From: a phage
Sequence record: PZ386970.1
Strand: one strand, 5' to 3'
DNA: 64,000 nucleotides
Part shown: one piece after another, positions 41,780 through 42,235 of the stretch
Layout: every line of letters begins with the position of its first letter
Numbering within the stretch: position 1 is the first letter of the stretch
Program-made: the position numbers and the translations under genes
Notes under the pieces: generated by a model
What the model was told of the DNA's origin: nothing
Databases searched by the model: none
Seen by the model: only the letters and a program-made list of their open reading frames with translations

Positions 41780-42235
41780 TTATTTTAGATCTTCGGCCCA
41801 ATCTAGTTTTAAGGGTTCTTTGTATTCACGGTCGAGAATAACCGGAATAGCTACATCACCACTGAATGATAGTTGGCCAACGTTATATGATAACGTTATA
41901 TGTGGAGTGTAGTCGTCGAAATCATGAGTAGCACCTAAAGCTCGTGCATACTGATGACGACATCTAAGATATTCAGAATCAAGAACTAAAACCAGTACAG
42001 CGCCGTCGTCAGTTTTCCATACCTCAAAGTGTCCTGATTCGGCAACAGAATAACTACCACTAGATGTAGTATATGGTATGTTTACACGTGAATAACAAAT
42101 TGTTGAATGAAGCTTTTCACGTGGTACTGGATTAGGAATTCTTAATTTACGCTGGAGGTCTTCCAGCGCATCAAGTGTTAATTCTGAAAATTTAGCTGCG
42201 ACGTAGAGGCCTTGTGAAAAGTCCTCAAATTTCAT
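41780..42235 (-). CDS. 57B: 2H phosphoesterase, T4 57B / anti-CBASS Acb1-like
   Basis: 151 aa with two H-x-T/S motifs (HSTICY and HITLSY) about 80 aa apart, characteristic of the 2H phosphoesterase fold; syntenic with 57A and gene 1. Confidence 0.65.

Follow-up and report, generated by a model that had tools for sequence, protein, structure and literature searches.

A predicted anti-CBASS Acb1 (gene 57B) orthologue in a Mosigvirus-type phage

Acb1 of phages T4 and FBB1

Acb1 was first encountered as a 3'3'-cGAMP-degrading activity that was purified from T4-infected cells and traced to gene 57B (Hobbs et al. 2022, PMC9117128). Recombinant T4 Acb1 is active and deletion of acb1 abolishes cGAMP cleavage in lysates (PMC9117128). 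The statement of a first-pass annotation of our sequence that T4 57B is anti-CBASS protein 1 therefore has both a biochemical and a genetic basis. Deletion of acb1 impairs T4 >300-fold on CBASS hosts. In HIDEN-SEQ experiments T4 acb1 was non-essential on K-12 and became depleted from the transposon libraries when the host carried CBASS, making it a conditionally essential gene. Its expression in T4 is middle/late, and the onset of Acb1 activity lies at about 15 min of infection.

The mechanism has its structural template in Acb1 of Erwinia phage FBB1, for which an apo form (7T26) and a complex with 3'3'-cGAMP (7T27) have been solved and which adopts a 2H phosphoesterase fold (PMC9117128). Residues Y12, W74, F107 and W147 are involved in base stacking, E141 contacts the adenine N6, residues 145–152 form a C-terminal lid, and the tetrad H44, T46, H113 and T115 carries out metal-independent cleavage 3' of adenosine via a cyclic phosphate intermediate (PMC9117128). 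The enzymatic activity itself is on record for T4 as well as for nine further homologues (PMC9117128). T4 Acb1 also cleaves cAAA, and its authors suggested that it may serve in the evasion of cA3-based type III CRISPR signalling. Carrying the gene can have a price: type II Panoptes restricts Acb1-encoding Tevenvirinae, which escape via mutations in acb1. Type I Panoptes defence is unaffected by deletion of acb1 in T4. In phage Bas43 acb1 contains a nonsense mutation. Searching the literature, we found no direct work on Acb1 of RB69 or other Mosigvirus phages.

The acb1 ORF and its conserved residues

The sequence analysed here (the window) is a stretch of 64 kb from a Mosigvirus (RB69-like) phage, as judged from a 2-kb segment with 98.6% identity to Shigella phage phi25-307 (Mosigvirus) and a 24-kb segment with 96–97% identity to several Mosigvirus genomes. 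Its ORF listing includes one on the minus strand at 41780..42235 that starts with ATG and encodes 151 aa plus stop, exactly where the first-pass annotation had placed a 2H phosphoesterase gene. No competing ORF was listed on the opposite strand of this region, the sole ORF there measuring 30 aa. We assign the gene as acb1, the orthologue of gene 57B, on the basis of the reading frame, the match to Pfam PF23474, the identity to T4 57B and FBB1 Acb1, and dN/dS.

The product matches Pfam PF23474 (Anti-CBASS protein Acb1) with E=1.3e-58 and 197.3 bits, the curated cut-off of this model being 27 bits; residues 8–149 align with profile positions 1–144 of 144. It also matches PHROG 755 (E=2.4e-65), and the best match in the PDB is FBB1 Acb1 (7T26/7T27; E=1.1e-58, residues 9–148, 63% identity). 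Because of these values for Pfam, PHROG 755 and 7T26 a match by chance can be excluded. Two further Acb1 entries of the PDB, 9Q2G and 9Q2Y (165 aa), gave a weak match (E=0.007) that spans both catalytic motifs. In NCBIfam no model matched either Acb1 or the neighboring ip gene. A single-sequence AlphaFold2 model of the protein was unusable (pLDDT 37), and the assignment of the 2H fold is for this reason based on the similarity to the solved structure 7T26 (63% identity, E=1e-58), by which a compact 2H phosphoesterase fold is strongly implied.

Homology to T4 57B had been claimed at the outset, and its lack had been named as a finding that would speak against the Acb1 reading. Such a lack does not apply, because 129 of the 151 residues are identical to T4 gp57B/Acb1 (NP_049750.1; 85% identity, 92% positives, 0 gaps, E=2e-102). 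Judged by sequence, the gene is intact and orthologous to T4 57B; the activity of its product is predicted by homology to T4 Acb1 (gp57B), which has already been characterised.

The two HxT/S motifs that had been read as the mark of a 2H phosphoesterase, HSTICY and HITLSY, are both present. The first (H43-S-T45-I-C-Y) comprises residues 43–48, encoded at 42092..42109 on the minus strand, and the second (H112-I-T114-L-S-Y) residues 112–117, encoded at 41885..41902 on the same strand. We located both by reading the sequence, by residue mapping and by alignment in the light of the published tetrad (PMC9117128): H43/T45 and H112/T114 correspond to H44/T46 and H113/T115 of T4, as the claim of two catalytic histidines would have it. 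Residue mapping of all nine positions with an assigned role (Y11, H43, T45, W73, F106, H112, T114, E140 and W146) yielded 9/9 identities with their T4 counterparts, which are in order Y12, H44, T46, W74, F107, H113, T115, E141 and W147 and thus offset by one residue. The base-stacking aromatics Y11, W73, F106 and W146 are consequently all in place, together with E140 as the contact to adenine N6. An alignment of eight homologues, taken from phages of Escherichia, Erwinia, Acinetobacter, Aeromonas, Klebsiella and Vibrio, showed the HxT/HxT tetrad, Y11 and E140 to be invariant down to 28% identity. The alignments with T4 and FBB1 further place the C-terminal lid described for Acb1 (PMC9117128) at residues 144–151 (145–152 in T4 and FBB1), encoded at 41783..41806 on the minus strand. 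This segment reads LDWAEDLK, includes the stacking residue W146, and shows one conservative change (D148E) relative to LDWADDLK of T4. It would presumably close over the ligand as in the described proteins.

The product of the ORF is very probably a functional orthologue of T4 Acb1 that would counter CBASS by cleaving cyclic nucleotides, with substrates, chemistry and phenotype taken over from T4 and FBB1. At the locus itself we observe the ORF, its family membership, the conservation of all function-assigned residues, purifying selection and a conserved genomic position. During infection the protein would act as a small metal-independent 2H phosphoesterase that binds 3'-5'-linked cyclic di- or trinucleotides made by host CBASS cyclases and containing at least one adenosine (3'3'-cGAMP, cUA, cAAA and related signals). 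The bases would be stacked between the conserved aromatics, the glutamate would read the adenine N6 and the C-terminal lid would close, upon which the HxT/HxT tetrad would cleave 3' of adenosine with a 2',3'-cyclic phosphate as intermediate. The resulting linear molecules would no longer activate the CBASS effectors, so that abortive infection would be prevented. A counter-defence role, as initially proposed, is hence supported by homology and by the conserved residues, and hydrolysis by the protein of the window is expected from its homologues.

Databases offer a different name for the same family. RefSeq labels T4 57B (NP_049750) and many orthologues 'RNA ligase', PHROG 755 carries the same product name, a weak match to Pfam 2_5_RNA_ligase2 (E=0.013) was found, and tRNA genes are located about 2 kb downstream of acb1. 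Together these would point to a LigT-like protein that acts on RNA ends (in tRNA repair, for instance), either as a 2'-5' RNA ligase or as a 2',3'-cyclic phosphodiesterase. We regard this as very improbable. For PF13563 the score is 15.9 bits (cut-off 27), with residues 70–131 alone matched, whereas the Acb1 model scores 197 bits; with the score below threshold we rejected an identity as RNA ligase. Moreover, the T4 orthologue was purified by way of its cGAMP-cleaving activity, which is lost from lysates upon deletion of the gene, and the residues of the base-stacking and adenine-reading pocket are all retained. In the sources examined no experiment stands behind the name, which is a transfer at superfamily level. 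Since the 2'-5' RNA ligase model stays sub-threshold, Acb1 appears to have been mis-annotated as 'RNA ligase' at superfamily level.

Genomic position and candidate expression signals

On the minus strand acb1 is preceded by gene 57A (tail-fibre assembly chaperone, 42235..42465; Pfam GP57, E=1e-22) and by gene 1 (dNMP kinase, 42470..43204; Pfam DNMK, E=2.6e-96), the order being that of other phages. Further upstream of acb1, also on the minus strand, follow gene 3 (43258..43848) and gene 2 (43945..44766). The arrangement 2-3-1-57A-57B is shared by T4, Acj9, an Aeromonas phage, KP15 and Vibrio phage Va3, straboviruses whose hosts are Escherichia, Acinetobacter, Aeromonas, Klebsiella and Vibrio. 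That acb1 follows immediately after 57A and gene 1 supports an identity as Acb1 without being strictly defining. The TAA stop codon of 57A overlaps with the ATG of acb1 by one base (TAATG), and this arrangement suggests that the two genes are co-transcribed and translationally coupled.

The first-pass annotation had described the synteny as ipI, 57B, 57A, 1. The part 57B-57A-1 holds; the slot given to ipI is occupied by an Ip7-type internal head protein gene (41399..41707, minus strand), whose product shares 89% identity with a distinct 102-aa Mizar protein; the Shf125875 counterpart of the latter goes under the label Ip7. This protein starts with MKTFKEFICE, in which we take MKTFKEF to be the capsid-targeting peptide. 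It aligns with IPI of T4 solely over 32 N-terminal residues, 13/32 of them identical. When the 64-kb window was searched for ipI by tblastn, nothing was matched beyond the targeting peptide common to both N-termini; the window contains no ipI. With the similarity to IPI limited to these N-terminal residues and no ipI elsewhere, the label 'ipI' for 41399..41707 was rejected. The window thus lacks the GmrSD inhibitor that ipI encodes. In this it resembles phi25-307, which likewise has ip7 but no ipI; Mizar and Shf125875 possess both genes. The ip cassette is bordered by a repeat of about 84 bp, found in the window at 41685–41768 and matching both junctions in Mizar. Its occurrence at both junctions suggests that the cassette may be gained or lost through recombination between the repeats.

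Beyond ip7, a scan of 34.0–42.5 kb detected only two tRNA genes (Arg-TCT and Met-CAT, 39738–39892, minus strand). The equivalent region of T4 comprises eight tRNAs as well as the small RNAs C and D, and the tRNA cluster of the window appears much reduced. Four small ORFs are located between the tRNAs and ip7 (39972–41329, minus strand), in the variable, anti-defence-rich segment that adjoins acb1. Three of them match the PHROG families of T4 trna.2, trna.3 and trna.4 (phrog_2023, phrog_1411 and phrog_1692) and the fourth would encode a 174-aa protein (phrog_2290); none of the four has an assigned function.

A candidate late promoter for 57A-acb1 is TATAAATA, which occurs within gene 1 (42820..42827, minus strand) at a distance of 355 nt upstream of 57A. 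We take TATAAATA to be the T4 late-promoter consensus. In T4, gene 1 contains this motif at the corresponding offset (T4 segment L001 5006–5013; 355–356 nt upstream of 57A). Across the window TATAAATA is found no more often than by chance, and for this reason we only infer its role as a late promoter. The MotA-box pattern of middle promoters did not occur between 41.0 and 45.0 kb, and a scan for sigma70-like promoters stayed at background level (14 sites, 12.3 expected). The positionally conserved late-promoter motif is therefore the only one that we put forward. Such a promoter fits the onset of Acb1 activity and the middle/late expression of acb1 described for T4, and 57A and acb1 may be co-expressed partly from it. 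A divergent pair of TATAAATA motifs is furthermore located at ~45.2 kb (45230–45237, plus strand, and 45245–45252, minus strand). It corresponds to a T4 pair at L001 7350/7365 in the intergenic region between gene 4 and gene 53.

Between the stop codon of acb1 and the start of ip7 a stable hairpin with a 12-bp stem is predicted (41728..41757, minus strand; dG -17.7 kcal/mol, z=-3.8). It overlaps with a sigma70-like site (TTTACA-17-TATAGT, 41766 to 41738). At this position the stems of T4 and Mizar have other sequences, which are likewise pairable by eye, folding having been carried out for the version of the window only; this suggests compensatory change in the stem. The hairpin might mark the 3' end of the 57A-acb1 message or stabilise this message; it might also belong to the promoter region of the ip gene.

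Selection, distribution and comparison with known systems

Comparison of acb1 with its T4 counterpart resulted in a dN/dS of 0.069, with dS near saturation. Such a low ratio despite a nucleotide identity of 75% indicates strong purifying selection on the coding sequence. Using tblastn we found Acb1 in 1,470 of 50,697 phage records, and at least 138 phage records encode a protein that is 99–100% identical to Acb1 of the window. Matches with 100% identity include E. coli O157 typing phage 6 and phage LF82-41. In phage Mizar a near-identical orthologue is annotated as 'anti-CBASS Acb1-like protein'; many other records label orthologues as 'hypothetical protein' or 'RNA ligase'. The gene is therefore an already known one with identical copies in public phage genomes, and its presence here opens no new biological question.

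These data also bear on the question whether the copy could be decaying or inactive, for which natural disruptions of acb1 in related phages, such as Bas43, provide a precedent. The ORF is of full length (151 aa, 152 in T4) and free of frameshifts and stop codons, the catalytic tetrad is intact, and the protein recurs nearly unchanged in the 138 or more records mentioned above. With ORF and tetrad intact and dN/dS at 0.07 an inactive remnant was excluded; we consider it extremely improbable.

It is also very improbable that the protein mainly serves against type III CRISPR systems with cA3 signalling, that its substrate range has drifted, or that it is chiefly a liability which triggers Panoptes. 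The cleavage of cAAA by T4 Acb1, together with its authors' suggestion of type III CRISPR evasion, and the escape of acb1 mutants from type II Panoptes speak for a contribution of these systems; drift finds a possible basis in the substitutions relative to T4. However, every defined specificity-determining residue is unchanged, type I Panoptes defence did not change when acb1 was deleted from T4, and a role against type III CRISPR or in Panoptes differs from the anti-CBASS role in emphasis, not in molecular function. As to the substrates, small shifts in preference are conceivable because 22 of 151 residues differ from T4, including D148E and positions in the beta-hairpin 53–80. That the Mosigvirus allele has a substrate range distinct from that of T4 Acb1, owing to L70F, the 76–80 loop beside the stacking tryptophan and D148E, seems very improbable as well. 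Such a range might for example spare Panoptes decoy nucleotides or extend to cGG or 2'-5'-linked signals, and if it were real the allele would represent a natural specificity variant in the arms race of CBASS and Panoptes. As far as can be read from the protein, nothing points to an altered range, all defined specificity residues being the same as in T4.

With the anti-CBASS reading, the Mosigvirus-type phage would carry an intact and selectively maintained counter-defence gene against CBASS, possibly also directed against cA3-based type III CRISPR. Its presence is relevant to the prediction of host range in phage therapy. Going by the Panoptes studies, an intact acb1 may at the same time expose the phage to guard systems that sense the depletion of cyclic nucleotides. 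For annotation, 'RNA ligase' and 'hypothetical protein' should become 'anti-CBASS protein Acb1'.

The described systems beside which the locus can be set include LigT, the 2'-5' RNA ligases and other 2H phosphoesterases of the PF13563 clan. They have the two HxT/S motifs in common with Acb1 of the window, and the LigT family shows a weak, sub-threshold profile similarity around the second motif; substrate and role are different from those of Acb1. The proteins in 9Q2G and 9Q2Y represent a distant branch of Acb1 with weak sequence similarity. In FBB1 Acb1 both HxT motifs as well as the tyrosine, the glutamate and the tryptophan align with the protein of the window. According to the alignment of eight homologues, FBB1 has F and Y where the window protein and T4 have W73 and F106, in both cases one aromatic residue for another. 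T4 Acb1 is the closest of the described proteins in sequence. It differs in length only by one extra N-terminal Met (152 versus 151 aa), and the two proteins agree in the catalytic tetrad, the stacking aromatics, the Glu that contacts adenine and the Trp of the lid. The differences comprise 22 mostly conservative substitutions at a nucleotide identity of about 75%, several of them in the beta-hairpin around residues 53–80 and one, D148E, in the lid. Downstream, ip7 takes the place of the ipI of T4, and 57A and 57B overlap by 1 nt (TAATG) instead of the 4 nt in the T4 annotation. In both phages 57B is located downstream of 57A and gene 1.
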